A stretch of DNA of 32,000 bases. It comes from Pyrodictium occultum (GTDB lineage: Archaea; Thermoproteota; Thermoprotei_A; Sulfolobales; Pyrodictiaceae). The stretch's first letter is position 1. Each line of letters starts with the position of its first letter. The DNA lies in assembly GCF_001462395.1 (NCBI RefSeq), contig NZ_LNTB01000001.1, positions 1,440,001 to 1,472,000 on the forward strand. The letters run 5' to 3'. Positions 14,733 through 31,587 of the stretch are shown here, in pieces. Below the pieces are notes generated by a model that made no database searches, was not told the DNA's origin, and was given only the letters and a program-made list of their open reading frames with translations. Position numbers and translations under genes: made by a program.

Positions 14733-16769
14733 TTAGGCATCAATCCCCGGCATCCGATACGGTATTTTGACTACTTCAGCTCCAAGGGCTTTTGCCAGCA
14801 GCTCCGTATAGTCTAGTAGCTTTAGACTCCTGGTACTCTTTGTATCATACACTATTGCCTTCACCTTTAGCCTCCTAAGCTCCTGAGAGACTCTAATTAT
14901 GTCGCTTTCGATGCTGTTCGTTAGCGGAACGTTAGCCCTTCCATCAGTTATTATATGGAGCACTAGATGCGCGTTAGGCCTCTTCAGTAGGAACCCTTTG
15001 GCCTGCCTACTAGCTTCAAGCAATGCTGCAGGCAGGGGAGTAGAACCTCCTATAGTGACCTGGTTTAGAGCCTCCATGAGCTTCTTCCAGTTACGCGTAG
15101 GCTTCACAAGGGTTTGCGCATTCCTTCCCTGAAACGCTATAAGGCCTACCCATGTGCGCTCGACGTAGCTCCTACGCGTCACTCCCTCAGCTATAGATTT
15201 GGCTAGGACGAGCCTTCTCTCAGCATACATGCTGCCACTGGCATCTAGCAGAATCATGTGCAGTACCTCAGGCTCCTCACGGTACACACGGACATGTATG
15301 TCGTGGACCGATGGCCTCCTGGCTCTACGCCTTAGGGCAGCACGGAGGGTAGCATAATAGTCTACCTGGTAGCCTTCCCCGAGCCTCTCGGGCTCCCGGA
15401 GGAAGGGTATAGAGTCTACATGCCTTCCCCAGCCATAGAAGCTTACCCGGTAGCGTTGCCAGCGTACCCTTCCTCTAGGCCCTGTAGGAGCTATCGCGGC
15501 ATGCTCCGGTAGATAGTAAATGCTTCTGGGGGGTTCATGGAACCAGGGATCTGCCCTAACGTCTCCAAGCCTGGCGAGAGGCGTGGCGCCGGACCCTGCA
15601 CCGCTACCAATAGAGCCCGTGGTTGGCTTGCCACTGTAGTCTTCTCCGCCATCCTCTCTGCCTCCCTGCACCCTCTCGCCGCCTTTGCTTCCGTTATTCA
15701 TGCTTCTGTTGTTGATTAGGGGATTTTTCCGCCCATTTTCTGGCCTATTTTTTTGCCTACCTGTATCCTGTTGCCCATCCCGGCCTAGATTCTGCAGAAG
15801 GGTTTGTAGCTTTTTCATCTTCTCCTCTGGGCTCTCAAAGGGCTGTGAACGCAGCCTATGCGGCAGCGCTAGCTCCATAGCCTTCTTTACATCCTCGATG
15901 CTTACAGTGGTCCGGCCATCGAGCGCTGCCAGAGCTTTAGCTGTCCGTGCAGTAACTATGTCTGCTCTATGCGTCCTTATTCCGAGCTTAACCGTCGTTT
16001 CTGTAATGAGGCGCAGTAGGCTTCTCGGTATCTCTACTCTGGGGAATAGCTCCCTAGCACGCCTAATCCTCTGACGTAGCTCTGCCTCCTGCTTCTCGTA
16101 CCGCTTCATGAAGCCTATAGGGTCTCGGCGAAACTCCTCAACTCTCTCGACTATCAGTGCCCTCTCCTCTGGGTCCTGTGAGGCATTAACATCAACATAG
16201 AGGCCAAAGCGGTCGAGAAGCTGAGGTCTAAGCTCGCCCTCCTCCGGGTTCATGCTGCCGACCAGTATGAAGCGTGCGGGGTGGCGGATCGAGAAGCCCT
16301 CCCTCTCCACAACATTCCAGCCAGTAGCAGCAGCGTCGAGTATGAGATCTGCTATGTGGTCGTCAAGTAGGTTGACTTCATCTATGTAGAGTATGTTACG
16401 GTTTGCCTCCGCCAGGAGCCCTGGCTTAAACACAACCTCTCCTCTCTTCAGTGCAGCATCGACATCTATGCTCCCCACGAGCCTATCAACGCTAATGTTG
16501 AGGGGCAGGTCTATAACCCTCATGGGCCTCCACTCGACTTCAAACCTCTCGCCTCTCAGCCACATCTTGTAGTGCTTGTCGCACATTTCCCTGGGGTTGA
16601 AGGGGTTACAGTTGAAGGGGCAGCCCTTAATCACCGGTATCTCTGACAGCACTTGTGCGAGGCTTCTCACAAGCGTGGTCTTCCCAGTACCCTTATCACC
16701 TACCAGCAGCACTCCCCCTACCTCAGGGTCTATGACTGCAGCCAGGAGGGCGAGCTTGGCTTTCTCCAT
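14733..16769 (-). CDS. chelatase ATPase subunit: ChlI-type AAA+ module fused to a low-complexity linker and a ChlD-type vWA domain
   Basis: Walker A 'GDKGTGKTT' and Walker B 'ILYIDEVNLLDDH' are present, followed by a G/N/R-rich linker and a MIDAS-type 'ILLDASGSM' vWA domain. The conserved ChlI N-terminal motif 'LPFTAIVG' is encoded in frame upstream of ATG 16769. The true start is therefore probably upstream, possibly CTG 16829 (see findings). Confidence 0.85.
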   Translation of the reverse strand: MEKAKLALLAAVIDPEVGGVLLVGDKGTGKTTLVRSLAQVLSEIPVIKGCPFNCNPFNPREMCDKHYKMWLRGERFEVEWRPMRVIDLPLNISVDRLVGSIDVDAALKRGEVVFKPGLLAEANRNILYIDEVNLLDDHIADLILDAAATGWNVVEREGFSIRHPARFILVGSMNPEEGELRPQLLDRFGLYVDVNASQDPEERALIVERVEEFRRDPIGFMKRYEKQEAELRQRIRRARELFPRVEIPRSLLRLITETTVKLGIRTHRADIVTARTAKALAALDGRTTVSIEDVKKAMELALPHRLRSQPFESPEEKMKKLQTLLQNLGRDGQQDTGRQKNRPENGRKNPLINNRSMNNGSKGGERVQGGREDGGEDYSGKPTTGSIGSGAGSGATPLARLGDVRADPWFHEPPRSIYYLPEHAAIAPTGPRGRVRWQRYRVSFYGWGRHVDSIPFLREPERLGEGYQVDYYATLRAALRRRARRPSVHDIHVRVYREEPEVLHMILLDASGSMYAERRLVLAKSIAEGVTRRSYVERTWVGLIAFQGRNAQTLVKPTRNWKKLMEALNQVTIGGSTPLPAALLEASRQAKGFLLKRPNAHLVLHIITDGRANVPLTNSIESDIIRVSQELRRLKVKAIVYDTKSTRSLKLLDYTELLAKALGAEVVKIPYRMPGIDA

Positions 16770-16825
16770 GCCTACTATTGCTGTGAAGGGCAGGTATAAC
16801 CTCCTCTCGCGCTCCTCCGGGCTGT

Positions 16826-18403
16826 TCAGAAGCCCCCACCTCCCCTCCTAGTTGAGCGTCTTGAAGAGAGCAGGGAGCGGGCCCACTGAAGCGCTTCTTC
16901 GGCAGGCTTCGCGCTCTCTGCCCACTCCTTAACGTCCTCGCTGGTGTAGACCCATATCTCTCCACCCTGTGCTTCACCTGACGGCGCCTCGCCCTCGAGT
17001 AGCGCCTCTACCTCGGCACGGGCCTCCCGGAGGATCCTCAGCGCCTCAGGGCTGGGCCTCCATAGCTTCCTCTCCACAGCCTCTGCTAGACGGCGTGTTA
17101 TCTCCTCGAGCGCATACGGGTTAGCCTTCTTCATCCATTCCCTGTTGGTCTTGTCTCCTAGGTACGTGTATGTTATCTGGTCCCACACCCTGTCGGGGAC
17201 AGCGTGTGTCGTCGCATGCCAGCCGTAGAGGTTCTGTATCTTCTTCATTATCTCGTATGCTCCTCTGTACCCGTGCCTCTTCATGCCCTCGATCCATCGT
17301 GGGTTTAGGAGCTTGCCGTAGGTTACACGTAGCAGCTCATCCTTTACCTCACGTATCTTGGGGCGTAAGGGTTCACGGGTATCGACAACCATGTTTAGCG
17401 GCTCACGCCCTCGGACAACCTTGACGAGGGCGTGCAAGCCGCCCTGATGTGAGAAGTAGGAGCAGCAGTTCAGCGGGTCATGCTCATCGCTTATATGGTT
17501 TCTCGCCACTACGTCTATGCGTGAAACCTGTAGGACTAGGGCCTTAGCTGCAGCTGGATGAGACTTGCCCCAAGTCCTCCGCGTATACGGGTGGCTGCTC
17601 CACTGAACCCACACCTTTGCTAGGTCTCTCTCGTCGCGCCATGCGGAGGCGAATATAGCATAGTTGACTCCTGTGCCATAGGCTCCGGGTGGCGCAGCCC
17701 ATACGCGTGCACGGGCAAGTTCTCTAGCATCTTCTTCGCCTACACCCTCCCTTCTCAGCCTTTCAAGGAACTCGAGATAATGCTTGCGTGGATAATTAAG
17801 CTCAAGCGGCTCATCTAGATTAACAACTTTCTCTACAGCCTCATCTATCAAGCTCACATAGTTTGGCAGCGTGTCGCGTACTATACCGCTTATCCTCACG
17901 AAGACGTCTACCCGTGGCCTACCAAGCTCTTTGAGCGGTATGACCTCCACACCCTTCACTCTGCCGCTAGCATCCCATACAGGACGCACGCCTAGCAGGT
18001 AGAGAACCCTGGCAAGCTGCTCTCCGTCAGCCTTGTAGCCGTCAATGCTCCACAATACTTCACCCATGGTTTCGGGGTAGCGGCCTAGCCTCCTCCTAGC
18101 CTCCTCTAGAAGCTTCTTAGCCGTTTCAACGCCTATCCTCCACGCGGCACGTGTGGGAAGAGCCTCTGGGTCTACGGCGTAGAAGTTCCTGCCCGTGGGT
18201 AGCACATTTATCTTGCCGCGGGTTATGGCTCCCGAGGGGCCTGGCGGCACAAAGCCTCCAGAGAGCCCGCTGAGTAGGCCCTCTATCTCGTGCCTACCGC
18301 TCTCCCGGTACAGCCTAGCAATTAGGAGTGCCTTCCTGAAAGCGTTTAAGGCTTGTCTGGTCTCCTCCCCTAAGGGCTTCTGAAGCTGGACTAACTCTGT
18401 CAA
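16826..18403 (-). CDS. cobN: CobN/ChlH-family chelatase large subunit, C-terminal part of a split gene
   Basis: 525 aa. 'GKINVLPTGRNFYAVDP' and downstream blocks are collinear with residues ~780-1191 of the intact paralog at 26974-30549 ('EALPTGRNIYQFDP'). The TTG start overlaps the upstream stop (TTGA), and GGTGA lies 4 nt upstream. Confidence 0.8.
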   Translation of the reverse strand: MTELVQLQKPLGEETRQALNAFRKALLIARLYRESGRHEIEGLLSGLSGGFVPPGPSGAITRGKINVLPTGRNFYAVDPEALPTRAAWRIGVETAKKLLEEARRRLGRYPETMGEVLWSIDGYKADGEQLARVLYLLGVRPVWDASGRVKGVEVIPLKELGRPRVDVFVRISGIVRDTLPNYVSLIDEAVEKVVNLDEPLELNYPRKHYLEFLERLRREGVGEEDARELARARVWAAPPGAYGTGVNYAIFASAWRDERDLAKVWVQWSSHPYTRRTWGKSHPAAAKALVLQVSRIDVVARNHISDEHDPLNCCSYFSHQGGLHALVKVVRGREPLNMVVDTREPLRPKIREVKDELLRVTYGKLLNPRWIEGMKRHGYRGAYEIMKKIQNLYGWHATTHAVPDRVWDQITYTYLGDKTNREWMKKANPYALEEITRRLAEAVERKLWRPSPEALRILREARAEVEALLEGEAPSGEAQGGEIWVYTSEDVKEWAESAKPAEEALQWARSLLSSRRSTRRGGGGF

Positions 18404-20808
18404 ATCTTCACCCCCTCCCCGCGCGCAGCCTCAGCCACAAGGTCTTGGAGAAGATTGAAAGAAAGCATGTCAGGATCTATATCCTTTGACAAGAGTTTCT
18501 CGAGGACCCTAACAGCTATACTGTGGAGGATCTCTCTAGCCTTCCTGTTGCTAACCCCCAGCTTCTTGCAGAACTCGCTGGGCTTCGACACTATCTTGTC
18601 GTAGTCTAGGCCGAGTAGTGTTGCCACTGCCCTCTCTATTGATATCCACTCGCCAGTGTCCCAGGACATTATAGCTGCTACATGCTCTGCAAGCTTTTCA
18701 GGATCTGAAGGCGTTTCACCAAAGACGTGGAGCCCGTTCTCGACGGTACTTCCTCTTGTCTCGTCCAGGAACTCATGAAGCCTCTCAGTGATCTTATCAG
18801 GGCTCCCTTTGCCTACATCGATGCCACGCTCTCGAGCTTTCTCAACAATCTGCTCAAAGATTACTTTTGCACGGGCCTCCTCGCCTAGGCTTTTTGCACG
18901 GCTGTACTCCTCCAGGAGCTCGTCAAGCTCCTCAAGAGCTGTGTCAGCCTTCATGTACGGCGGGTGGGCATGGTCTATTATCACCGCGTAGCCTCTCCTC
19001 TTAGCCATGACACCCTCCATGGGGTTTGTCACATTGTATATGTAGAGGAAGGGTATGTCGTCAACTGTTATCTCTGGCCAGCAGTAGGGCGAAAGCCCGA
19101 CACCCTTGCCTGGGCGGAACTCAAGATACCCATGCGTCCCCCAATGTATCATCACGTCTGCGCGGAAGATCCTGGTCACCCACCGGTAGGCTGCCAGCCA
19201 CTGGTGCGGGGGAGGGATAGTGGGGTTGTGGAGTATCTTGCAGACCCTCCCATCGCATAGGGCGCCGGCGCAGCCAAACTTCGGCTGCGGCATGATAACT
19301 ATGTTGCCGAAACGTATGCCGGGTATTACGAACTTCCCGTTGTACACCGCGCCGGCGAATAGCCTCTTAACCTTGCCGCTTAGGATGTCACGGGGATCAC
19401 CCCACCACTTAAGCATAACCTTCCTAGCCTCCTCTGGAAGCTCCATGAACCACTTCATGTATGTGTCGAGGTCAACCATGTCAAGGTATCCTCCCCGCCT
19501 AACTATTTCCTCGACGGGGGTCCAGCGGAACTCGCTCGTAGCCCTCCTCTCGAGTATCAAGTGGATTAGCTCGTCTCCCGTTTTCGGCAGCTCGCCTTCG
19601 CCAGTGTAGTAGCCTAGGCTGCGGAGACGGTGGAGGAAGCGTACAAGGCTCTCAGGCACATCGAGCCCGAACCCGACTCCTATCGATGCCTCAAGCTGCC
19701 TACATGGGGGATTATTGAGTATTATGGCTATCCGCCTCTCGCTGGGCTTCTTCCTGCGCAGGATCACCCAGCGCTTAACCCTCCTAGCTATGAGCCTGAC
19801 GTGAGGCTCATAGGGTATGTGCTTCCTGTAATCGGAGACCCTAGTCGATGTGCTAATGACGATGGGCTCTACTGCGCCGTCAACCTCGGGCATGATGACT
19901 TCATATACTTGTGTCAGATAGTTGACTCCCTGGGGGTTCTCGAGCCACTCGTGCTCACTCTGATACCACTCGCGGATGGGCTTAAGCACTGGGACCCCGA
20001 GGCGTTGGAGCAGCTCAACGCCTCTAACAATCCTAAACCTCTCGTCAACCGTGCTTCTTGAGTAGCTTCCATGGTCGAGGAGGAAGAAGCTAAGCATATC
20101 TATGAGCACATCTATTCTAGCCCCTTTAGCGCCTAGGAAGAAGCTGCGTATAGTGTCCTCAGCGCTGGGTCCGCCCAGCACGCTATCCCTATAGCCCTGC
20201 GTGAAGACGGGAATGACGCCAAGCCCCTCAGTCTCCAAAGCATCTATGAGCGCTTCAAGGGGTCTTCGGTTCCCGTAGAGCCAGAGGCTACGGTAGTAAA
20301 GTATGCCTATGAGAGGCTTGTCAGCCATATAATAGTCGCGTAGATAGTCGTCGATATCCTCGTAGACGCCTAGCTTTGGGTGCCACACCCCGTGCAGAGG
20401 GATCTCCCTGGGAGGCGGGGGCTCTTCTTCCACGAGACCTGCCAGATACAAGAGATACCGGAGAAGGAGGCCCAGGTTCTCCTCGCCACCGATCCTAAAA
20501 TACTTCATCGCCTGGAGCAGAGCGCCCTCCTCTCCACGGGCTAGATACGCATAGCTCTCCCCCGCGGGTATCACAAACCTGGCACTCGATGATGCTATGG
20601 CCTCCTCCGCCTCTTTTGGAAGCCTATGCGTGTAGAGGAAGATTACCCTGGAGCTTCTGAGATCATCCAGGCCCTTACCCCCCTCAAGCGTGTTTGGGGA
20701 AAAGACTCTGATGAACTGGCCAGCCTCCCCCATCTCAGCTCCAAGTCTGCGCAGCAGCTCTATCACGGGGCTGTCATAGCCTATTACAAGCGTGACTAGC
20801 GAGCCCAT
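18400..20808 (-). CDS. cobN: CobN/ChlH-family chelatase large subunit, N-terminal part of a split gene
   Basis: The conserved block 'HQWLAAYRWVTRIFRADVMIHWGTHGYLEFRPGK' matches '[35 protein letters not shown]' in the paralog. I place the start at ATG 20808 ('MGSLVTLVIGYDS'). The GTG at 20847 lies inside the promoter palindrome. Confidence 0.8.
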   Translation of the reverse strand: MGSLVTLVIGYDSPVIELLRRLGAEMGEAGQFIRVFSPNTLEGGKGLDDLRSSRVIFLYTHRLPKEAEEAIASSSARFVIPAGESYAYLARGEEGALLQAMKYFRIGGEENLGLLLRYLLYLAGLVEEEPPPPREIPLHGVWHPKLGVYEDIDDYLRDYYMADKPLIGILYYRSLWLYGNRRPLEALIDALETEGLGVIPVFTQGYRDSVLGGPSAEDTIRSFFLGAKGARIDVLIDMLSFFLLDHGSYSRSTVDERFRIVRGVELLQRLGVPVLKPIREWYQSEHEWLENPQGVNYLTQVYEVIMPEVDGAVEPIVISTSTRVSDYRKHIPYEPHVRLIARRVKRWVILRRKKPSERRIAIILNNPPCRQLEASIGVGFGLDVPESLVRFLHRLRSLGYYTGEGELPKTGDELIHLILERRATSEFRWTPVEEIVRRGGYLDMVDLDTYMKWFMELPEEARKVMLKWWGDPRDILSGKVKRLFAGAVYNGKFVIPGIRFGNIVIMPQPKFGCAGALCDGRVCKILHNPTIPPPHQWLAAYRWVTRIFRADVMIHWGTHGYLEFRPGKGVGLSPYCWPEITVDDIPFLYIYNVTNPMEGVMAKRRGYAVIIDHAHPPYMKADTALEELDELLEEYSRAKSLGEEARAKVIFEQIVEKARERGIDVGKGSPDKITERLHEFLDETRGSTVENGLHVFGETPSDPEKLAEHVAAIMSWDTGEWISIERAVATLLGLDYDKIVSKPSEFCKKLGVSNRKAREILHSIAVRVLEKLLSKDIDPDMLSFNLLQDLVAEAARGEGVKI

Positions 20809-20844: not shown

Positions 20845-20890
20845 CACCAGAGAATATAAATCTGGTGCACCAGATTTATATTCTCTGGTG
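20845..20890. promoter_or_regulatory. perfect 46-bp palindrome: two mirrored CACCAGA-N9(TATA)-TCTGGTG elements forming a bidirectional promoter/operator
   Basis: CACCAGAGAATATAAATCTGGTG|CACCAGATTTATATTCTCTGGTG. The right arm is the exact reverse complement of the left arm. Each arm is itself a 7-bp inverted repeat flanking TTTATAT/ATATAAA. The TATA boxes lie ~41-52 nt from ATG 20922 (plus) and ATG 20808 (minus). Confidence 0.75.
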
Positions 20891-21320
20891 CACCTACCCC
20901 TCTGATGGAGGGTTCTCAGGTATGAGCCGGACTTGGCTAATCACGGTGGTAGCAGTACTGATTGCTGCAGGCCTTGTAGCCGGCTACGAGGTCCTCAGCC
21001 ACCCCTCCACGGCGTCGAAAACTGTGGCGACAACGGTGGCCAGGACAACTGTTGCTACACCGGCTGCTACGCTTGTAAAGACCGTGGCGACCAGCACCAG
21101 ATTTATATTCTCTGGTGCACCTACCCCTCTGATGGAGGGTTCTCAGGTATGAGCCGGACTTGGCTAATCACGGTGGTAGCAGTACTGATTGCTGCAGGCC
21201 TTGTAGCCGGCTACGAGGTCCTCAGCCACCCCTCCACGGCGTCGAAAACTGTGGCGACAACGGTGGCCAGGACAACTGTTGCTACACCGGCTGCTACGCT
21301 TGTAAAGACCGTGGCGACCA
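20867..21320 (+). repeat. perfect 227-bp tandem duplication (2 copies: 20867-21093 and 21094-21320)
   Basis: A base-by-base comparison of the two copies found no mismatch. Each copy contains one promoter arm, the SD-like GGAGGGT, the ATG and the first ~57 codons (TM anchor plus Thr-rich linker) of the propeller gene. Confidence 0.95.
20922..21152 (+). pseudogene. truncated duplicate 5' gene fragment (76-aa TM anchor plus linker, frameshifted tail) created by the tandem duplication
   Basis: It has the same ATG context as 21149. The 227-nt period is not a multiple of 3, so the frame shifts at the junction and ends at 21152 ('...TVATSTRFIFSGAPTPLMEGSQV'). It could still be expressed as a small anchored peptide. 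Confidence 0.6.
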
Positions 21321-22822
21321 CCAGGACAGTAACAGTACCGGTAACTAGGACTGTTGTTATCGAGGAGGCTAGAAGGCCTAGACTCCTCGCCGACATCCCT
21401 ATCGCGTCGAGAAGCTCGCTCCCACCCTACACCTATGTCCAGGTATCGTCATGGCGTAGCCACGCTCCATACACTTTGATAGTCTTCGCACCATCCTCAG
21501 ACGAGTTCGCAGTGACAGTGACGAGATTTGTAGGAGGTAAGCCCGTTAGCGAGGTACGCGTGTTCAGCGTCGAGGGTGGAAAGGTCGCTGAGCTATGGAG
21601 GTTCAGCGTGGGGAGCGGCTATGTCCGCTCCCTCGCCTGGAGCAGTGACGGCGCAATCCTCTTCATAGGAGAGGACAGCATTGATGGGAGAGTGGTAGCG
21701 GTTAACGCGTCAACGGGCAGGATGCTCTGGAGCTATGCGACCAGTAGAGATCTTGGCAAGGGGGACCCCCGTGAGCCGAGGTGGTACTGGCCGCAAGTAC
21801 ATGCTATAAGGTATAGGGGTGGAAGAGTCTATGTAGCGGCTGCGGCCAAGCCACAAGCCTCCTATGGGAAGAACTCGGTAATATACTGCTTTGACGCTAA
21901 GACGGGCCAGCTGCTCTGGAGGTACCCCCCAGAGGGCTTTATAGACACACTTGTAAGCGATATAGAGTTGAGCCCTGACGGCTCATACCTAGCAGCGGCC
22001 ACCTGGTACTACCGCGGCAAGGCCTGGAAGGGCGGCGACCTCCTCCTACTAGACGCTGCTACAGGGAAGCTGCTTGCCAGGTTCCGGCCCAGCCCACGCC
22101 CACCATTCCGCTGGTGCGGCAGCTGGAACGGATTAGGCTGGCTCGACAATACAACCATAGCTTATGTGACAGACGTCGGCATCATCCATATACTACAGGC
22201 GCCCAATCTCACCGAGAAGGCCGAGATCAACGTGACTAATCCCTTGCCGGTCCTTGTCATCCCCAAGGGAAGCAATACTACTGAGGAGGGCTATGCCTAC
22301 GCGTTCAGTGGCTACAGTAAGGTCCTTAGAACACCTAACGGCCGTACACTACTCCTAGTGAGGACAAGCAACACCTACGGCGTCACAGCACTAGGTAAGA
22401 ACGCTAGGCCCACCCTCAACCACCCTGACGCGAACTCCCTCTTCATATATGAATGGGTGGGAGGAAAACTGGTGCTCGTAGCAAAGTATCCCCTGCATGG
22501 TAGGCCAAACTACGAGCAGTGGGCAACTTACTCCCCTGCTAAGGGCCTCCTAGCAGTCCCAGTGGGCCACGACTATATAAGCAGAACAATGGTGTATACC
22601 GGCGTCTATGTGCTCAACCTCACAGACATCGAAGCGGTTAGGAGCGGGGAGGCATTGACATACATGGTTAAGCCGCCGAGAGACGCCGGCGTGGTCATCG
22701 GGGGAGCCATAAGCCCCGACGGCTCCAAGGTCGTGGCGGTTACTTATCCAATAAACCTGGGTACGCTAGAGAACCCGAGGTTCGTTGGCAGCTACCGCAT
22801 CCTGGTATACAGCCTTGGCTAG
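21149..22822 (+). CDS. N-terminally anchored PQQ-like/WD40-like beta-propeller repeat protein
   Basis: 558 aa. It has the anchor 'WLITVVAVLIAAGLVAGY', the Thr-rich linker 'TVATTVARTTVATPAATLVKTVATTRTVTVPVTRT', and recurring 'G(R/Q/K)(M/L)LW(S/R)Y', 'SSDGAILF', 'LSPDGSYLAAA' and 'ISPDGSKVVAV' blade motifs. GGAGGGT lies 8 nt before the ATG. Confidence 0.75.
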   Translation: MSRTWLITVVAVLIAAGLVAGYEVLSHPSTASKTVATTVARTTVATPAATLVKTVATTRTVTVPVTRTVVIEEARRPRLLADIPIASRSSLPPYTYVQVSSWRSHAPYTLIVFAPSSDEFAVTVTRFVGGKPVSEVRVFSVEGGKVAELWRFSVGSGYVRSLAWSSDGAILFIGEDSIDGRVVAVNASTGRMLWSYATSRDLGKGDPREPRWYWPQVHAIRYRGGRVYVAAAAKPQASYGKNSVIYCFDAKTGQLLWRYPPEGFIDTLVSDIELSPDGSYLAAATWYYRGKAWKGGDLLLLDAATGKLLARFRPSPRPPFRWCGSWNGLGWLDNTTIAYVTDVGIIHILQAPNLTEKAEINVTNPLPVLVIPKGSNTTEEGYAYAFSGYSKVLRTPNGRTLLLVRTSNTYGVTALGKNARPTLNHPDANSLFIYEWVGGKLVLVAKYPLHGRPNYEQWATYSPAKGLLAVPVGHDYISRTMVYTGVYVLNLTDIEAVRSGEALTYMVKPPRDAGVVIGGAISPDGSKVVAVTYPINLGTLENPRFVGSYRILVYSLG

Positions 22823-22824
22823 AG

Positions 22825-24369
22825 TTGGGGGGTAACGCGGTGCCGAGAGGCCCGGAGGGTTTTTCCTCTGGTAAGCTCCTCTGGGTAGCCGCACTCCTAT
22901 CGGCCCTAGCCCTGCTCGGCAGCCTACTTGTACACGCACATGCTAAGGGGGCAGGGGGCAGCCCCCCTGTAAGCCTTGTAGTCGAGCTACCCCCGGGCCA
23001 GAAGCATTACAGCAATACTTCTCTCAAACTACCCCTGCCGGGTAGCTACATCTTCTGGCTCATAGTGGAGTCCAATACGGGTAGACTCGTCAGATACAAA
23101 CTCGACTTGAAGGTGGAGGGTGATGCAAGCCTAGAGAAGCTATCCGGCCCCCTTGAAGGCGTGCTGCAAGGCTACGGGGATAGAGCCATACTATATGGGC
23201 TCATCGAGGCTGGTAGCGGAGGCTTCAAGCTGATTGCCCGGCTCCAAGCCCAGAACCGCACCCGCAGCATAGCCCTCCACGTAGCTAATGTAGAGCTTAA
23301 GGCGGGTTTTAGCAGTGTCTACCTTCCTGTAGACTATCTGGGTGTGAGGGATCCACGGAGAGAGCCTTTCACCCTTGTAGAGTCCTACCCCTCGCCCCTG
23401 CGTAAGCTGCTGGGCGTGGGGGAGAACATTCTCCTCGGCTACATGCGTGTTTGCGTCAGGTCGAGTATGCCGGGCAGCTTCCTGGTCCTCGGCCGCGTAT
23501 ACGACTCTAAAGGCCGCCCTGCTCCAGTGGCGAGTACGGTCATAACTCCGGGAGCGGGCTCCCCCTACATAAGATCCATGGTGGTGGTTAACAGCACTGC
23601 TGGAAGGAATGAATATCATGGCTGTATTGTGGTCCCCCTATGGTCTCTAGCGGAAGTGATACCGCCTGGAAGGTATCGCCTCACGCTGGGACTATATCTG
23701 CCCGGGTCTGCTAGGCCTCTAGCCACCTACAGCCATGACGTGATTGTAAGGCTGCTATATCACGGTGACATAGTTACTGCTCTCGCGGCAACTCTTACAG
23801 GTGCCCTAGTGCTTGTCCCCCTCGCGAGGGTGAAGGATAGCAGGAGGATAGCCTATATGGCTCTTACGGGTGCTTCTCTCACCGCCCTTGTACGGATCAT
23901 CGGGGGTATCCTCCTCCGTCTCTCGCAAGTGCTGGGGCCCTTCGACTGGATAGTCTATGGCCCGGTAACCAGTGGGCTTTACTATGGCCTGCTGGCGGCC
24001 TGTCTTGCCGCGACAGGTGATTGGATGGTCACGGCAGGCGCTGTGCTTGTTGAGTGGCTGCTTTCATCGCTCATACTCAGCCCCGGCAATATAGTGCTCA
24101 GTAGCCTCTGGGTGCTCACGACGCTTTCCGTGGTAGCTCTAGCGGGGTATGCAGCCCTACGTACTCGTCTAGGCCTGCTCCCCATTTACTTCGGCCTCGC
24201 GAAGATCCTCGACAGCTACGTTGACATAAACCTGTACGCATTCATATACAGGCTATACTATGCGCACTGGTATGTTGCAGCATACAGTCTTGGAATGGGG
24301 TTCTACGCCTCCCTTGGCACACTCCTCGCACTGAGAATGGTGCGTGGCCATGCTGGAGGCACAGGTTAG
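22825..24369 (+). CDS. membrane protein: signal/anchor, ~290-aa extracytoplasmic domain and a C-terminal 6-7 TM domain (candidate ECF S-component-like substrate module)
   Basis: 514 aa, starting 2 nt after the propeller gene at TTG 22825, or at GTG 22840 with a GGGGGGT motif upstream. The hydrophobic N-terminus is 'LLWVAALLSALALLGSLLV'. The last ~200 aa form consecutive TM helices. It overlaps the ECF ATPase gene by 26 nt. The S-component assignment is an inference from context and topology only. Confidence 0.6.
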   Translation: MGGNAVPRGPEGFSSGKLLWVAALLSALALLGSLLVHAHAKGAGGSPPVSLVVELPPGQKHYSNTSLKLPLPGSYIFWLIVESNTGRLVRYKLDLKVEGDASLEKLSGPLEGVLQGYGDRAILYGLIEAGSGGFKLIARLQAQNRTRSIALHVANVELKAGFSSVYLPVDYLGVRDPRREPFTLVESYPSPLRKLLGVGENILLGYMRVCVRSSMPGSFLVLGRVYDSKGRPAPVASTVITPGAGSPYIRSMVVVNSTAGRNEYHGCIVVPLWSLAEVIPPGRYRLTLGLYLPGSARPLATYSHDVIVRLLYHGDIVTALAATLTGALVLVPLARVKDSRRIAYMALTGASLTALVRIIGGILLRLSQVLGPFDWIVYGPVTSGLYYGLLAACLAATGDWMVTAGAVLVEWLLSSLILSPGNIVLSSLWVLTTLSVVALAGYAALRTRLGLLPIYFGLAKILDSYVDINLYAFIYRLYYAHWYVAAYSLGMGFYASLGTLLALRMVRGHAGGTG

Positions 24370-25702
24370 ACGGGTCACGTATCCAGGGGGTAGGGTGGCT
24401 GTCGAGAACGTCCATGTAAGCCTAGAGCCTGGCGAGGTGTTGCTGGTCGTAGGGCCCAGTGGCTCTGGGAAGAGCACCCTTCTCAAAACCATAGCAGGAG
24501 TGATACCCTTCATAGAGGATGCTCATCTACATGGAAGCATACTCGTACATGGTGAAAGCATTGAAGGCCTGCCGCCGGGGCGCAGGCCGGTAGCATACAT
24601 GCCCCAGGACCCTAGCGAGCTAGCTTTAGGGGATTACGGTGCCGAGATACTTCTCCTCTATGGCGCCAAGCCCCGCCTAGAGGTAGAGGAGCTACTGGAG
24701 CGGAGAGTATCCGAGATGAGCAGTGGGCAGCTACAAAGACTGCTCCTCTCAGCCGTCCTCGGCCAGGGGAGGAGCATAGTCCTCCTCGACGAGCCTCTTG
24801 CAAATCTTGACGTATATTCATCAAGCCTAGCATATAGGACCGTCAAGGAAGTCGCAGGGGAAGGAGGGTCTGTTATAGTCGCTGAGCACCGCGTCTCAAA
24901 GCTTGCTGGGCTCGCCGACAAGATCCTTGTGCTCGGTAAGGATGGGAGGCCAGTCTACTACGGTAAAAACGTGGAGGGGGGTCTCCGGATTGCTGAGGAT
25001 ATCGGTGTACGCCCTGCAGACGCTACTGGAGAACAAGTAGAGATTGATGTCAGCTGCAAGAGCGTTAGTGGCTGGAAGGATGCTGTGGCCGGGCTAGAGA
25101 ACGTCTACGCAGGGTACGAGGGTAGGGCCGTGCTAAAAGGCCTTAGCTTTATATGTCCTAGAGGGGCCATGGTGGCTGTTATAGGCCCCAACGGCTCGGG
25201 TAAGACGACTATGTTGAGGCTGCTTGCTGGAGTGGCCAAGCCCTGGAGGGGCCGTGTCTACTACGCATGGGGGCGCTGGGACTGGAGGATGATAGGCTAC
25301 GCCCCCGCCTCGCCCTGGCTATCCTTTCTGGAAGACACGGTGTTCGACGAGGTAGCTGTGGCTGCCCGCAGGGCTGGAAGCTCCTCGTTCAGGGAGGACG
25401 CCTTAGAGGTGTTAAAGCTGCTTGGGCTACAAGAGTACCTAGGAGAGAAGCCATGGAGGCTTAGTGGAGGCGAGATGGTCAGGCTTGCTGTGGCACGAGC
25501 TGTTGTGAAGAAGCCTAGGCTGCTTCTCCTCGACGAACCTCTCCGAGGCCAGGATAGGAGAAGCGCTGAGGTTGTCCTAGAGGCGGCTCGGCTTGTAGCC
25601 CGCAGCGGAGGTTGCTCAGTAGTAGTAACCCACGACCTGGAGTTTCTCCGGGAATTCGACCTCATCTACAGGGTTGATAGGGGGTGCTACATGGTTGGCT
25701 GA
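24344..25702 (+). CDS. ECF/CbiO-type ABC ATPase with two fused nucleotide-binding domains (EcfA1-EcfA2 / YkoD-like)
   Basis: NBD1 has 'GPSGSGKST', 'MSSGQLQRL', 'VLLDEPLANLD' and 'VAEHR'. NBD2 has 'GPNGSGKTT', 'LSGGEMVRL', 'LLLDEPLRGQD' and 'VVTHD'. NBD2 lacks a clear Q-loop Gln ('YAPASP'). GGTG lies 7 nt before the ATG. Confidence 0.85.
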   Translation: MAMLEAQVRRVTYPGGRVAVENVHVSLEPGEVLLVVGPSGSGKSTLLKTIAGVIPFIEDAHLHGSILVHGESIEGLPPGRRPVAYMPQDPSELALGDYGAEILLLYGAKPRLEVEELLERRVSEMSSGQLQRLLLSAVLGQGRSIVLLDEPLANLDVYSSSLAYRTVKEVAGEGGSVIVAEHRVSKLAGLADKILVLGKDGRPVYYGKNVEGGLRIAEDIGVRPADATGEQVEIDVSCKSVSGWKDAVAGLENVYAGYEGRAVLKGLSFICPRGAMVAVIGPNGSGKTTMLRLLAGVAKPWRGRVYYAWGRWDWRMIGYAPASPWLSFLEDTVFDEVAVAARRAGSSSFREDALEVLKLLGLQEYLGEKPWRLSGGEMVRLAVARAVVKKPRLLLLDEPLRGQDRRSAEVVLEAARLVARSGGCSVVVTHDLEFLREFDLIYRVDRGCYMVG

Positions 25703-26537
25703 GAGGCTTCTAAAACTCTCACGGGACTATGTGAGGCGCAGTAGAGGTCCCCTCTCCAGGCTTAGGCCTGGAACAAGACTCGCCTACGTCTTCCTCGTAT
25801 CGGTGTCAAGCATGGTCTTCGGTAGGATTGAGGTGCTTGTAGCCCTGGCAACAGCCAGTATAGTATTCTTCCTGCTCTCGGGCCCCAGTCTGCGCAAGCT
25901 CCTCTCTGTATCCCTCCTAGCCGCGGCGGTGGTTTGGAGCATTGTGCTTGCCCAGGCTCTCTTCTACCAAGGCTCGCCTAGAACACCTATAGCGGTCTTA
26001 GTGCCGTCGACTACACCCATTATAGGCAGGTTTACGGGTGGCATATACATATACTATGAGGGGCTAGGCTACGGCTTCCGCCAGAGCCTGCGAGCGCTAG
26101 CAGGCCTATATGCAGGCGCGGGCCTGGCATCGTCAACGAGCATTATGGACATCTATGCTCTCCTGGCCAGGCATCCTAGGCTTCTCGCAGCGCTTCTAGC
26201 TGGGCTCCGTGGCCTCGAGAAGCTTCTCGACGAGCTGGAAGAAGGGCTAGCCTCTCTAAAGCTTACAGGTGCGCGTCTAGGCTTCTCGAGGCTCCACAAG
26301 CTCATCCCATTGATTGTAAGACGCATAGAGGCTGGAGCTACATCAACCGCCCTAGCCTTAGAGTATTCATCTCCCGTCCGAGTAGCTGAGGGCTGGGGCA
26401 TAGTAGCCCTGATGCTCTTCGGGCTAGCATCTCTCCTCATGGTGCTTTACGTGCTCTATCTCCTCTACTCCGCTGGGGTGCTCTACAGCCCCTTCCTACA
26501 AGAGCTCTATGAGTGGCTAAGGCTCTGGTTCTCATAG
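25674..26537 (+). CDS. ECF transporter T component (EcfT/CbiQ family)
   Basis: 287 aa and polytopic. The N-terminal 'YVRRSRGPLSRLRPGTRLAYVFLVSV' matches the EcfT/CbiQ pattern 'Y.p..S.lhrLdPr.Kl'. Ala/Arg/Gly-containing coupling-helix-like segments ('LKLTGARLG') are present. The start is TTG 25674 or TTG 25695, the latter with GGGGGTG 8 nt upstream. Confidence 0.7.
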   Translation: MIGGATWLAERLLKLSRDYVRRSRGPLSRLRPGTRLAYVFLVSVSSMVFGRIEVLVALATASIVFFLLSGPSLRKLLSVSLLAAAVVWSIVLAQALFYQGSPRTPIAVLVPSTTPIIGRFTGGIYIYYEGLGYGFRQSLRALAGLYAGAGLASSTSIMDIYALLARHPRLLAALLAGLRGLEKLLDELEEGLASLKLTGARLGFSRLHKLIPLIVRRIEAGATSTALALEYSSPVRVAEGWGIVALMLFGLASLLMVLYVLYLLYSAGVLYSPFLQELYEWLRLWFS

Positions 26538-26924
26538 CATAGTGTGGCCTATGCACTGGAGCATTTCTCCGGAGGGGCAGCATGCTGCAATATAATGGGT
26601 GGAAATGTGCAGCCATACCACACTCCAGCTAAGAGGAAAGCGGACTCGGGAAAGCTAGGGGCAGGCAGGGCCCAGCTCCTCTCAGTAGCGGGGCTCCTTC
26701 TTGAGCCATGAACTTATAGCCGCACCAGGCTGAAAAAGCTTAAGCAATGGCCGTAGCTTATGTGGAGGATTATGGCACACTCTACACGCTATAGGCGTTA
26801 AACCTGTCGAGGCTGCTGAGATAGATTACGACAAGTATTCCATCTGCACTTGTCACTCTTCAGAACAATGCTGCCAGGGCTATGCTCCCCCATAGCACGG
26901 TCCTCGGAATCATGAAGGCCAGGT

Positions 26925-26932
26925 ATTTATAC
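26925..26932 (+). promoter_or_regulatory. TATA box (TATTTATA) of the second cobN
   Basis: It is an AT-rich octamer ~45 nt upstream of GTG 26974. The predicted TSS at ~26955 coincides with the left arm of the inverted repeat. Confidence 0.4.
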
Positions 26933-26954
26933 AGCGGCGACACCATTAATGCGG

Positions 26955-26982
26955 GTGCACCACAGGCTCCCGGGTGGTGCAC
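26955..26982 (+). promoter_or_regulatory. 9-bp inverted repeat GTGCACCAC-N10-GTGGTGCAC covering the cobN start codon
   Basis: Read directly from the sequence. The right arm begins with the GTG start at 26974. The left arm contains the GGTGCACC core shared with the 20.85-kb palindrome. Confidence 0.6.
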
Positions 26983-29900
26983 TTGGGGAGGCTTAAGGTT
27001 CTACTAATATCTACTGTTATCAGCGGTGACTTGAAGAGAGCGATTAAAGATGTTAGCAGCTATGTGGATGTTAAACTGCTGTATTCTCACCAGTTGCCGA
27101 GCTATAGCAGGGAGGATCTCCAGAGACTCGTTGACTGGGCAGACGTAATCCTGATAGATGTCAGGGGCGACCCCGGTGTACTCAGCGAAATAGACTATAA
27201 AGAGAAGGACGTAGTTTACCTGGTTGGCGGCTCGCCAACCCTAATGGCTAGGACGAAGCTTGGAAGATTTAGAATGCCTGCGAAAGCTGCGTCCATAGCA
27301 GTCAGTAGCCCTGAATCTATGGTTGCAAAGATAAAGAGGATGGAAAGGATTATTGAAAGCCTTGGAAGAATTATTCCCTTCGGCGCTCTAAGAGATGCAA
27401 GGGACTATGTGAGGCTGGTAAAGTACTGGGCTAATGGGGGCTATGAGAACTACAAGAACATGTTTCTCCTCCTAGCCCGGAGAGCTGGAGCCAGAGTAGA
27501 AGTTAGAGAGCCCATCGAGTTCCAGGAGTATGGGCTATACCATCCGGTTCACGGCTTCAACTACAATCCTATAATCGATCCAAGTAAGCCGACAGTAGGC
27601 ATACTCTTCTATGGCGGAATGCACTTCGGGCAATGCGCCAAAACGCTTGAAGAGCTTGTAAAACGGCTCGAAGAGATGAATATAAATGTTATACCCGCCT
27701 ATACAGACGGTATACTCGCGCTAAAACCTGTTGAAAAATTCTTCACTGGTGTCGATGCGATAATAAGCCTTCTCTGGTTCAGACTGAACGGCGGCCCCTA
27801 TGGTGGAGACCCAAGGCCCACTGTCGAGCTATTGAAGAGGCTTAAGGCTAAGCTATTCACCCCCGTAATGATGTATAACCAAAAGATAGAGGACTGGAGG
27901 AAAAGCGAGAGAGGGTTAAACGCACTCACAACGGTAACTGCTGTGACCCTCCCTGAGATGGACGGCGGCGTCGAGCCTATACCCCTGGGCGGGGTTAAGG
28001 GTGACGAAGTTGTCCCTATCGATGACAGAGTGGATAAGGTTGCTAGAAGGGTTGCTAGGTGGCTAGAACTCCGGAGGAAGCCCAACCATGAGAAGAGAAT
28101 AGCGATAATAATATACAATTACCCGCCGGGCGAGGAGAATCTAGGCAACGCAGCTTACCTTGACACCTTCAAGAGCGTAGAGAGAATACTAGAGGAGCTT
28201 AGAAGGGAGGGCTACCAGGTCCCAGAAGTTAAAGACCTCAAGAAAATGTTTATTGAGAAGAAGCTCTTCAACCCAACAATTTATCCTCCCGAGAAGATTG
28301 ACTGCCCGAGAATGAGCGTCAAAGAGTATCTGAAGTACTTCAACGAGCTACCGGAGGATGTCAGAAGAGAGGTGGTAAGATACTGGGGCGAGCCACCTGG
28401 CGAAATAATGGTAGATGACAAGGGTATATTAATACCCGGGGTTGTGCTTGGGAACGTGTTCATAGGCGTCCAGCCATCAAGACCGCCACTAGCCAGGGAA
28501 GAGGACGTCTACCATGCAATCCATGACCCGACTAGGCCCCCCCACCACCAGTACCTAGCCTTCTACTTCTGGCTTCAAAGAGTGTTCAAGGCGGATGCCG
28601 TCATCCATGTAGGAACTCATGGTACAGCCGAGTTCATGAAGGGGAAGGAGGTTGGCCTCTCCTCTAGGTGTTTCCCAGACATACTGATAGGTGACATGCC
28701 TAGCTTGTACATATATCATGTCGTCAACACGTCTGAGGCCACGCTAGCCAAGAGGAGACTCTATGCGACACTTATAAGTTACAACTCGCCTCCCTATACA
28801 ACCGCAGATCTCTACGAGGACTATGCAAGGCTAGAGGGATATCTCGACGAGTACCGTGAGGCATTGAGCAGCGGAGACAGAGCTAGGGCAGAGATCGCAA
28901 AGAGGAAGGCCCTTGAGCTAGCGAGGAAGCTTCACCTAGGCGAAGACCTTGAGGAGGTTGAGGCGAAGCTATATGAGTATAAGCGCTCAATAATACCTAA
29001 GGGCCTACACGTTCTCGGCCAGAAATACAGCCTAGAAGAACTCGAAGACTTCATAGTGCTTCTCGCAAGGTATGACAGAGGAGAGATAAAGTCGCTCAAC
29101 AGACTAATATGTGAGGACAAGGGGTGGAGCTACGAAGAGGTTTTGAAGGATCCAAGGAGGCTTAGAGAGGTGGACAGGGAGGCTCGGCAAATAGTCCAGA
29201 AGTTCCTTAAAGGTGAGAAAGTCCCAGCAAGGTATGAGAAGACACTGAGATACAGCCTCGAGATCGCCAAGAAATATGCAGATAATTCTCTCGAGATAAA
29301 GAACCTGCTAGAGGGCCTAAAAGGTAATTACATCGAGCCATCGCCTGGCGGAGATGTGATAAGGAATCCTGAGGCTTTGCCGACCGGGAGAAACATCTAC
29401 CAATTCGACCCGCTAAAAGTGCCGACGGAGGCTGCAACAGAGAGGGGCAGATACATTGCAAGAGAGACTCTGAGAAAGTACTTTGAGAAGCATGGAAGAT
29501 ATCCCGAGAGCGTTGGGGTAGTGCTATGGGGCTTTGAGACGGCTAAGACCTATGGCGAGACCGTTGCACAGATATTTGAGTATCTGGGGGTTGAGGTTAT
29601 CCACAAATCGCCCTGGGAGAAGGAGCTCAGAGTCATACCCCTCAGCGAGCTTGGCCACCCACGTATAGATGTCGTGGTCACAATATGCGGGTTCTTCAGG
29701 GAAATGTTTCCAAACGTGATGGCTTTGATAGATAGGGCCGTGAAGCTTGTCGCGGAGCTCGATGAACCCGAGGAGCTCAACTTTGTCAAGAAGCATGTAA
29801 AGGAGCTTAGAGGCTTTGGAAGTCTCGCAAAGGTAAGAATCTTCGGGCCGAGAGCAACAGAGTATGGCACTAGGATGCTCCAGCTAGTCGAAGACAGCGC

Positions 29901-30549
29901 CTGGAAAGATGAGGCAGACTTAGCTGAGGCCTACATGGAATCAATGAGCTACGCGTATGGTGAAGGCATATACTCTCAAAAGGCGAGGCAACTATTCGAA
30001 GACCTGCTAAAGAGGGTCGACATGGTTACACAAGTCAGAGACTCACAAGACTATGAGATTACGGATCTAGACCACTACTACGAGTTCTTCGGCGGCTTAG
30101 CGAAGTCCGTTGAGCAGCTAAGAGGGAAGAAGCCAGAGATGCTGATAGCCGACACAACCGGGGAGATGGTGAAGGTCGAAGACGTTAGAGAGTCGATAAC
30201 AAGGGGGACAATAACGAGAACTTTAAACCCGAAGTGGATAGAAGCTATGCTGAAACACGGGTTCCACGGAGCCCAGAAGATAGCTGATAGAGTAGAGTAT
30301 CTCCTTGGCCTAGCTGCGACTACCGGGGCGGTCGAGAACTGGGTCTGGGACAAGGTTGCTGAGCGCTTTGTGCTCGATGAAAACCTCTTCGAGAGGATAA
30401 AGAGCAGCAACCCATATGCAGCAAAGAAGATCCTAGAGAGGCTTCTTGAGGCAAGCGAAAGAGGTTACTGGAAGGCGGACAGGAAGGTGCTTAAAAAGAT
30501 AAAAGAGAGGTATATGGAGCTTGACGCGATGCTTGAGGAGGAAGCTTAG
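26974..30549 (+). CDS. cobN: full-length CobN/ChlH-family chelatase large subunit (second, lower-GC paralog)
   Basis: 1191 aa. It carries 'HHQYLAFYFWLQRVFKADAVIHVGTHGTAEFMKGKEVGLS' and 'ALPTGRNIYQFDP' and is collinear with the split pair. The start could be GTG 26974, GTG 26977 or TTG 26983. Confidence 0.9.
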   Translation: MVHLGRLKVLLISTVISGDLKRAIKDVSSYVDVKLLYSHQLPSYSREDLQRLVDWADVILIDVRGDPGVLSEIDYKEKDVVYLVGGSPTLMARTKLGRFRMPAKAASIAVSSPESMVAKIKRMERIIESLGRIIPFGALRDARDYVRLVKYWANGGYENYKNMFLLLARRAGARVEVREPIEFQEYGLYHPVHGFNYNPIIDPSKPTVGILFYGGMHFGQCAKTLEELVKRLEEMNINVIPAYTDGILALKPVEKFFTGVDAIISLLWFRLNGGPYGGDPRPTVELLKRLKAKLFTPVMMYNQKIEDWRKSERGLNALTTVTAVTLPEMDGGVEPIPLGGVKGDEVVPIDDRVDKVARRVARWLELRRKPNHEKRIAIIIYNYPPGEENLGNAAYLDTFKSVERILEELRREGYQVPEVKDLKKMFIEKKLFNPTIYPPEKIDCPRMSVKEYLKYFNELPEDVRREVVRYWGEPPGEIMVDDKGILIPGVVLGNVFIGVQPSRPPLAREEDVYHAIHDPTRPPHHQYLAFYFWLQRVFKADAVIHVGTHGTAEFMKGKEVGLSSRCFPDILIGDMPSLYIYHVVNTSEATLAKRRLYATLISYNSPPYTTADLYEDYARLEGYLDEYREALSSGDRARAEIAKRKALELARKLHLGEDLEEVEAKLYEYKRSIIPKGLHVLGQKYSLEELEDFIVLLARYDRGEIKSLNRLICEDKGWSYEEVLKDPRRLREVDREARQIVQKFLKGEKVPARYEKTLRYSLEIAKKYADNSLEIKNLLEGLKGNYIEPSPGGDVIRNPEALPTGRNIYQFDPLKVPTEAATERGRYIARETLRKYFEKHGRYPESVGVVLWGFETAKTYGETVAQIFEYLGVEVIHKSPWEKELRVIPLSELGHPRIDVVVTICGFFREMFPNVMALIDRAVKLVAELDEPEELNFVKKHVKELRGFGSLAKVRIFGPRATEYGTRMLQLVEDSAWKDEADLAEAYMESMSYAYGEGIYSQKARQLFEDLLKRVDMVTQVRDSQDYEITDLDHYYEFFGGLAKSVEQLRGKKPEMLIADTTGEMVKVEDVRESITRGTITRTLNPKWIEAMLKHGFHGAQKIADRVEYLLGLAATTGAVENWVWDKVAERFVLDENLFERIKSSNPYAAKKILERLLEASERGYWKADRKVLKKIKERYMELDAMLEEEA

Positions 30550-30691
30550 AGGCTCCTTTATGCTGCGAGCCTCATTCCTGCAGGGCTCCGCCGCATCACG
30601 CTTTTAGGGCCTGGCCGTAGTGCACCACGAGGTACTCCTGTCCTCCGCTCCACTCTTTTCGTAGTCAACGGCTATAGGATGCTGTTTGATG

Positions 30692-31465: not shown

Positions 31466-31587
31466 CTAGAAGCGGGGTACAGTCCTGGAGCCCCGCCTGG
31501 CCGAAGCCCCGGCGTATTATCAGGAGCTACCCCCGGGTAGCCCCGCCGGTGGAGGCCTGGCGGCGCCGGGAGGGGGGACCCGGGCGT

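Follow-up and report, generated by a model that had tools for sequence, protein, structure and literature searches.

A 46-bp perfect palindrome without a spacer lies at 20845-20890 of a 32,000-nucleotide stretch of the Pyrodictium occultum genome (contig NZ_LNTB01000001.1, positions 1,440,001 to 1,472,000; hereafter the window). It forms the core of a 113-bp divergent region between a cobN-chlID chelatase operon and an operon encoding a beta-propeller protein and an energy-coupling factor (ECF)-type transporter. The palindrome is a genuine feature of the P. occultum chromosome and lies far beyond chance. On the sequence of this region and of its counterparts in related genomes, we judge it probable that the region is a divergent control region, in which two mirrored TATA-like boxes and a set of GTGCAC boxes are served by one shared regulator.

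The arms of the palindrome are exact reverse complements of each other in 23 of 23 nt. The left arm (20845-20867) reads CACCAGAGAATATAAATCTGGTG, which on the minus strand is the right arm CACCAGATTTATATTCTCTGGTG; it is oriented toward cobN-N, the gene for the N part of CobN, whose ATG (20808) sits 36 nt past the arm. The right arm (20868-20890, plus strand) reads CACCAGATTTATATTCTCTGGTG and is oriented toward the propeller/ECF operon, with an ATG 31 nt past it. Both arms fit CACCAGA-N9-TCTGGTG exactly, and the junction between them is itself a palindrome, TCTGGTGCACCAGA. A preliminary description of this DNA had claimed the spacer-less palindrome, the arm layout and the third palindrome at the junction, and all three are confirmed in the window. 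The GTGCAC(C) box within that junction is the element that turns out to be conserved in relatives.

In an inverted-repeat scan of the 32 kb, this was the only perfect palindrome longer than 16 nt. When up to two mismatches are allowed, the arm pattern has three matches in the window against 0.07 expected, a count that none of 100 shuffles reached. The third match, at 21095-21117, is a copy of the right arm produced by a 227-bp tandem duplication, and no further arm copies occur in the window. Scanning 185,579 species representatives with the arm CACCAGAWWWWWWWWNTCTGGTG gave 30 matches, all at chance level in unrelated bacteria, and none in archaea; the P. occultum genome itself was not returned either. 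Scans for Rfam families, sigma-70-type promoters and terminators found nothing at or near the palindrome. We rejected a repeated or mobile element resembling repetitive extragenic palindromes (REP) or miniature inverted-repeat transposable elements (MITE), as there are no extra copies in the window, no archaeal matches, and metagenome matches only from an unrelated element. Readings as an origin of replication, a tRNA or a mobile element were also rejected, with no tRNAs and no repeats elsewhere in the window. The metagenome matches concern the 20-nt centre AAATCTGGTGCACCAGATTT, which is present in at least nine JGI contigs (L044-L052; Ga0307514, Ga0190269). Most of these have a repeated element (~47% G+C) in common that contains the copy; it has no relation to Pyrodictium and is probably mobile.

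The reference genome is an Illumina-only draft built from 276-nt reads, in which 14 SPAdes contigs were extended at their ends by read mapping and joined into two contigs by a Geneious 'superassembly' (PMC4767911). Perfect repeats in such a super-assembled draft deserve suspicion. Two independent assemblies were available in Logan, which consists of k=31 de Bruijn contigs (PMC12424806), as members of the 90%-identity cluster of the propeller protein. Over 2275 bp, L042 (DRR667393) departs from the window at 4 places, 3 of them substitutions and one a single-base indel; the 1166 bp of L043 (ERR15087784) include 8 differing alignment columns, made up of 3 substitutions and 5 indel columns. Both contain the right arm. 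They begin TCTGGTG|CACCAGATTT..., that is, TCTGGTG|CACCAGATTTATATTCTCTGGTG|CACCTACC..., 7 nt left of the palindrome centre, and continue unbroken via ...GCGACCACCAGGACAG... into the full-length propeller gene. A k=31 de Bruijn simulation of the window without the duplication breaks exactly at 20860|20861, because the arms are perfect for exactly 23 nt (31 - 24 = 7). With the duplication kept, the simulation gives extra breaks at 20866, 21063, 21093 and 21290. Since the Logan contigs start at the predicted break base, the palindrome is present in two other read sets. A homology search with full-length CobN-N returned no Logan fragment carrying the left arm, so support for that arm is indirect.

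That the palindrome is an assembly artefact, or a structural switch working by cruciform extrusion, is very improbable. Spacer-less perfect palindromes are classic artefacts as well as classic cruciform formers, and the single strand folds with -21.4 kcal/mol at 37 °C (z = -9.7). Two independent assemblies nevertheless break at the very point that a perfect palindrome of 2 × 23 nt imposes on a k=31 graph. For the cruciform, the temperature of the host matters, as P. occultum has its growth optimum at 105 °C (PMC4767911). The fixed hairpin was evaluated with nearest-neighbour DNA parameters, since loop parameters are extrapolated in free minimum-free-energy folding above 80 °C. Its predicted free energy rises from -20.8 kcal/mol at 37 °C through 0 near 85 °C to +8.5 kcal/mol at 105 °C, in a calculation that leaves intracellular salts and proteins outside the model. 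Extrusion is also disfavoured in hyperthermophiles, which have reverse gyrase and whose DNA lacks negative supercoiling. Cruciform extrusion, as suggested in the preliminary description, is doubtful for a hairpin predicted to be unstable at 105 °C; a cruciform switch appears unlikely by this calculation, and transient hairpins during replication are possible.

A/T runs of at least 7 nt are rare in this G+C-rich window, and each strand of the palindrome carries one, the octamer ATTTATAT(T) being present on both in mirror image. On the minus strand, TTTATAT at 20854-20860 is the TATA-like box for cobN, within a 9-nt A/T run (20853-20861) centred 49 nt from the cobN-N ATG. On the plus strand, TTTATAT at 20875-20881 is that for the propeller operon, within a 9-nt run (20874-20882) centred 44 nt from the ATG. 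The promoter of cobN2, a second cobN-like gene further downstream, has the TATA-like box TATTTATA (26924-26931), 46 nt before the start codon. Differential RNA sequencing of P. furiosus gave a TATA consensus WTTTAAAW at -30..-23 (PMC6640164). By this geometry, transcription is predicted to start at ~20904-20905 on the plus strand and at ~20831 on the minus strand, so that the leaders would be ~18-25 nt long; GGAGGGT is present in both of them. We infer from these boxes and spacings two divergent core promoters with mirrored TATA-like boxes. The claim that both operons see an identical element at a similar distance from their ATGs holds, at 36 nt (cobN) and 31 nt (propeller), if the duplication is absent. 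It does not hold in this assembly, where the ATG at 20922 opens only a 76-aa frameshifted duplicate and the full-length gene starts at 21149. A six-codon mini-open reading frame, ATGGAGGGTTCTCAGGTATGA, lies at 20905-20925 (and again at 21132-21152). It starts approximately at the predicted transcription start, and its stop overlaps the propeller start codon as ATGA; it is not kept in that form in L053, the closest relative.

Within the window, two copies of the palindromic box GGTGCACC lie in this region. Box 1 (20864-20871) occupies the exact centre of the palindrome and is the conserved candidate operator box. Box 2 (20887-20894), 23 bp after it, is made of the end of the right arm plus 4 nt of flank, and the two bracket the propeller-side TATA-like box. 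A second pair is found in the promoter of the paralogous cobN2 (26924-26983, plus strand), where GGTGCACC (26954-26961) and GGTGCACT (26976-26983) lie 22 bp apart, downstream of the TATA-like box. Expressed as the exact dyad GTGCAC-N15-17-GTGCAC, there are two occurrences in the window (20865-20893 and, upstream of cobN2, 26955-26982) against 0.00 expected. Lone GGTGCACC boxes away from the cobN promoters are seen at 12631-12638 and 30619-30626. The former comes directly after the ATG (12638-12640, minus strand) of a PF09826 beta-propeller gene (ATGGTGCACC) that has a TATA-like run ~50 nt upstream, and the latter is between two convergent genes.

Orthologous regions were compared in seven further lineages, represented by P. 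delaneyi (L001/L002), the NCBI metagenome-assembled genomes L003, L004 and L010, the ENA/JGI metagenome contigs L006-L009 and L011, and the Logan contig L053, whose CobN-N is 74% identical. The divergent cobN/propeller arrangement is kept in P. delaneyi, L003, L006/L007, L008/L009 and L053, and the split of cobN is also conserved. The 46-bp palindrome and its arm are absent from all orthologous regions compared, including that of L053. CACCAGA-N9-TCTGGTG, the layout given in the preliminary description, was not found in relatives or among the archaeal species representatives scanned, and the palindrome is not conserved even beside a 74% identical CobN. Instead, the orthologous and paralogous promoters share a palindromic GTGCAC, usually GTGCACC, mostly paired 21-23 bp apart.

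This sharing was quantified in several ways. All 6-mers were counted in nine orthologous and paralogous promoter regions, 1,266 bp in total, with the remainder of those loci as background. The top word is GGTGCA, with 20 occurrences against 0.57 expected (p 4e-24), and GTGCAC follows with 16 against 0.26 expected, in 9/9 regions (p 2e-23). In this unbiased count, both outrank TATA words. At a spacing of 21-23 bp and with no more than one mismatch per pair, 11 box pairs were counted in 94 kb against 0.51 ± 0.70 in Markov simulations, and all 11 fall within these promoters. Among the 53 loci fetched, the exact dyad occurred only in Pyrodictiaceae promoter loci and in 0 of 39 unrelated control loci. 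Conservation ends beyond ±2 nt of the box core. The AGA/TCT positions vary freely in orthologous promoters and the CACC/GGTG parts and outer box halves are kept; therefore, the conserved unit is the palindromic box and not the arm. L053 has the same box-TATA-box module at the identical 23-bp spacing, GTGCACC-GGTACATTTATATCAG-GTGCACC, with no mirrored arm and with the cobN ATG just 7 nt past the left box. In P. delaneyi, L003 and L053, one box abuts the TATA upstream and another is nearer the start codon, and in L006/L008 and at cobN2 the box pair is between TATA and start codon or over the start codon. At two other propeller genes (L004 4001 and L010 1062), the annotated start coincides with the first operator-like box (ATGCAC / TTGCAC) and a TATA-like run follows just downstream of it; these starts were probably called too far upstream.

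Considering the conservation of the boxes, the most likely reading is that the GTGCAC(C) boxes are the shared operator of one oligomeric regulator. Two mirror-image TATA boxes, one for each operon, would flank the palindromic box GGTGCACC at the symmetry centre. The regulator, for example a dimer of dimers, would bind a pair of GTGCAC boxes separated by about two helical turns. In P. occultum and L053 it would thus sit to either side of the TATA, and at cobN2 and in L006/L008 over the start site. Once bound, it would block TBP/TFB or RNA polymerase. Operators covering the core promoter, with repression by steric hindrance, are a common archaeal mechanism (PMC6746942). The chelatase operon, the transporter operon and cobN2 would presumably be co-repressed. 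Co-regulation of the chelatase and transporter genes, already argued from the mirrored design, is plausible, given that the divergent gene pair is conserved and that its spacer holds the shared motif. Two weak hints suggest that the regulator responds to a metal, nickel or cobalt. One is the make-up of the transporter, with its CbiQ-like T component and ECF-type ATPase. The other comes from L011 (22-2827), in which the divergent partner of the propeller operon is not cobN but larB-larC-larE, genes for the nickel-pincer cofactor; this hints that the transporter handles nickel.

Several observations weigh against a single shared regulator acting in this manner. No regulator gene is evident in the window beyond two weak ribbon-helix-helix-like open reading frames 19 kb away. 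Neither TATA-like box is preceded by a canonical transcription factor B recognition element (BRE; RRAAA), the 5 nt there being CACCA/CCAGA. CCAGR precedes the TATA-like box here, at cobN2 and in L003, raising the possibility that it is a lineage-specific BRE. L011 has the boxes without a strict dyad. The position of the boxes relative to TATA varies by lineage (bracketing, immediately upstream or downstream), so activation at some promoters is possible. The cobN of L053 manages without a second TATA. That the arms match at every position may be due to their recent origin and not to selection. Finally, the box pattern was defined after seeing the data, though the unbiased k-mer test recovers it. 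The two ribbon-helix-helix-like frames are in tandem on the minus strand (568-1188 and 1190-1768) and 22% identical. Their matches (RHH_5, E 0.0085; NikA-like, E 0.0067) are both below cut-offs, and they are possible DNA-binding regulators.

Other explanations of the same sequence were weighed. The one closest to the preliminary description places a dimeric repressor on CACCAGA/TCTGGTG across the TATA, with one identical operator for each operon. Two identical arms, each with 7-N9-7 inverted symmetry about a TATA-like box, do fit this layout, and CCAG also comes before the TATA in L003 and in the cobN2 promoter. Yet AGA/TCT is unconserved in every orthologous promoter, the conserved outer box halves fall outside a site centred on the arm, and the outer end of the left arm lacks a full box. 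Only the CACC/GGTG parts of the proposed half-sites are conserved, and these belong to the GTGCAC(C) box. No copy of the arm pattern exists elsewhere in the window apart from the duplicated one, in the relatives or among archaeal species representatives, and at cobN2 CCAGG precedes the TATA without a box, so CCAGR may be a BRE-like element. We regard an operator centred on the arm as improbable. Slightly less improbable, but still unlikely, is that the GTGCAC boxes are not a repressor operator and instead bind an activator or mark a class of promoters, such as one used by a specific TFB. Archaeal activators typically sit immediately upstream of TATA/BRE, which is where a box is found in P. delaneyi, L003 and L053. 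Against this, boxes at cobN2, in L006/L008 and in L003 lie between TATA and start codon or over the start codon, a position typical of steric-hindrance repression (PMC6746942). Nor are the boxes a general promoter element, as other promoters in ~92 kb of Pyrodictiaceae sequence lack them.

The palindrome could also be a rearrangement scar with no function of its own, a neutral template-switch duplication of accidental symmetry, with cobN transcribed from elsewhere or bidirectionally. The 23/23 identity of the arms extends to positions that are free in relatives, the relatives have no left arm, and the neighbouring perfect duplication shows, or mimics, recent instability. Archaeal TATA boxes can, moreover, fire both ways from one element (PMC6640164). 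Against a scar, the left-arm TATA-like box is 49 nt from the cobN ATG, the distance being 44 nt for the propeller operon and 46 nt for cobN2. At least two other read sets retain the palindrome, and these show several substitutions and indels relative to the reference. The upstream region of cobN in P. occultum is also 36 nt longer than in L053 and otherwise has no suitably spaced promoter element. We consider a neutral scar a minor possibility, and a divergent control region sharing one regulator remains the preferred reading.

Whatever its present role, the left arm is probably a lineage-specific mirror duplication of the right spacer, made by a strand switch at the central box. A strand switch is the simplest origin because relatives have the right-hand module only and because the palindrome centre is the centre of the self-complementary box GGTG|CACC. 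It would have copied the adjacent TATA-containing spacer in inverted orientation, giving cobN its own TATA. Arm identity at positions that are free in relatives argues for either a recent origin or continuing hairpin-templated correction; the three P. occultum-like read sets have diverged too little to separate the two. A bolder combination of these ideas, to which we give only a small chance, has the mirror duplication as the birth of the cobN promoter, the fragile palindrome as the seed of the 227-bp duplication, and the GTGCAC dyad as the mark of a new metal regulon, under a new regulator, throughout the Pyrodictiaceae. In such a history, one step at box GGTGCACC would have created a second promoter under the same operator. 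Hairpin opening 1 nt off the apex would then have seeded the 227-bp tandem duplication in PL19, the extra G at the junction being a P-nucleotide-like trace of that opening, and the palindrome would now be a fragile site even in an archaeon living at 105 °C.

The duplication itself consists of two tandem 227-bp copies that are 100% identical. Copy 1 (20867-21093, plus strand) takes in the right arm, box 2 and the leader, together with 172 nt from the start of the propeller gene. Copy 2 (21094-21320, plus strand) has no counterpart in L042 and L043. The first base of the repeat is the last base of the left arm, and this start (20867), 1 nt from the symmetry centre, fits the earlier suggestion that palindrome and duplication may be related. 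The junction between the copies reads GTGGCGACCA|GCACCAGATTT and, as ...GCGACCA|GCACCAGA..., is without microhomology; if there were no duplication, the end of the single copy would read on as GCGACCA|CCAGGACAG. Copy 2 contributes the third arm (21095-21117, plus strand), with its own TATA-like box (21102-21108) and box GGTGCACC (21114-21121). In this assembly, it is the putative proximal promoter of the full-length propeller gene. Upstream of it, a 76-aa open reading frame (20922-21152, plus strand; RefSeq WP_168371341.1) encodes the propeller N-terminal anchor and a tail that is frameshifted because 227 is not a multiple of 3. Its TGA overlaps the genuine propeller ATG (21149), which is 31 nt past the third arm copy.

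It is quite possible, if somewhat short of even, that the duplication, as distinct from the palindrome, is a finishing artefact, an unmerged overlap of contig ends beside a palindrome that breaks assemblies. The Illumina-only draft was finished by mapping-based extension and Geneious super-assembly (PMC4767911), the copies are identical with no microhomology at their junction, the 227-bp unit is close to the read length, and its start is 1 nt off the palindrome centre. Neither of the independent assemblies has it, and one of them differs from the window at just 4 places in 2275 bp. On the other hand, any assembler would normally merge a 227-bp overlap, and 276-nt reads are long enough to span and prove the unit. 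A real event would be neutral, as an intact promoter and gene are kept, and the Logan read sets differ from the reference and may be other strains. On balance, we lean toward a very young event in the PL19 culture.

Gene families in the window were assigned with Pfam and NCBIfam, and the gene calls agree with the earlier placement of the palindrome between the cobN and propeller/ECF operons, in their divergent promoter region. The chelatase operon spans 14733-20808 on the minus strand and comprises cobN-N (18400-20808, 802 aa, ATG at 20808), cobN-C for the C part (16826-18403, 525 aa) and a ChlI/ChlD-type AAA+-VWA subunit (14733-16769). The split of cobN into two genes (16826-20808), in which the TGA stop of the N part overlaps the TTG start of the C part, is found in P. 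delaneyi (L001 3973-7903) and in very many ~800-aa archaeal homologues. Since the same split recurs in these, it is not a pseudogene. The transporter operon, on the plus strand, begins with the membrane-anchored beta-propeller (PQQ_2/BamB-like, 557 aa, 21149-22822), identical to WP_083494572.1. It continues with a 514-aa membrane protein that matches no family (22825-24369) and a duplicated ATP-binding cassette (ABC)/ECF-type ATPase (24344-25702), and ends with the CbiQ-like T component (25674-26537). PDB sequence searches with the 514-aa membrane protein, the T component and a 257-aa open reading frame were uninformative. Further downstream is cobN2 (26974-30549, plus strand), a second, unsplit cobN/bchH-like gene that scores 970 bits against NCBIfam BchH, above cut-off. 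Its region (26538-30549) has 49-50% G+C compared with 55-67% around it, suggesting horizontal acquisition, and 436 bp upstream of it are without an open reading frame or Rfam match. At the end of the window (31001-32000), G+C rises to 73%, open reading frames overlap on both strands (30672-31465), and there is a fragmentary ADP-ribosylglycohydrolase match.

In kind, this is an ordinary control region, unusually symmetrical in form, and no new kind of mechanism. Archaeal repressor operators that overlap the core promoter include the MDR1, Phr, LrpA and TrmB-type sites. The YtrA operators of Sulfolobus acidocaldarius are similarly short palindromic boxes at BRE/TATA or over the start site (PMC6746942), with positions conserved between orthologous promoters and a small regulon of membrane and transport genes. 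The boxes here differ in being 6-8 bp palindromes in phased pairs 21-23 bp apart and, in P. occultum, in being embedded in a perfect 46-bp palindrome with two mirrored TATA-like boxes. The NikR operator, GTGTTAC-N13/14-GTAACAC, is 27-28 bp long and lies upstream of Nik/Cbi(M)NQO transporters (PMC545781). The likeness is a two-part site over about two helical turns before an ECF/CbiQ-type transporter operon, with a link to nickel through the larBCE synteny in one relative (L011). The sequence is different, each half is self-palindromic (GTGCAC), and N15-17 lies between the 6-mers. NikR was consequently rejected as the regulator and kept as a lead only: the geometry is alike, but sequence and half-site structure differ, the window holds no nikR gene, and none of its proteins matches the NikR family.

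Bidirectional promoters of the BRE-TATA-BRE type, known from P. furiosus (PMC6640164), resemble this region in that divergent units share a short A/T-rich region. P. delaneyi, with a single TTTAAATA, and L053 resemble this one-TATA type, whereas P. occultum has two exactly mirrored TATA-like boxes 21 bp apart. Long perfect palindromes are fragile sites, hairpin substrates of SbcCD / Mre11-Rad50 and hot spots of template switching. The P. occultum palindrome is like them in having no spacer, in the breakpoint of the putative duplication 1 nt from its centre, and in a self-complementary core that could seed strand switching. Unlike them, it is only 46 bp long, and its hairpin is not predicted to be stable at the 105 °C at which the host grows.

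Taken together, these results have consequences for the P. occultum genome and for its family. The 227-bp duplication marks a place where the only P. occultum reference genome is likely to be either in error or specific to its strain, and it has given rise to a RefSeq 'hypothetical protein', WP_168371341.1. The palindrome provides a clear natural case of a promoter copied as its mirror image about a palindromic, putative operator. GTGCAC-N15-17-GTGCAC is a concrete candidate operator and defines the first candidate regulon for Pyrodictiaceae. Its members would be the split CobN/ChlID chelatase, the second CobN and the propeller/ECF-type transporter, whose substrate is possibly nickel or cobalt.

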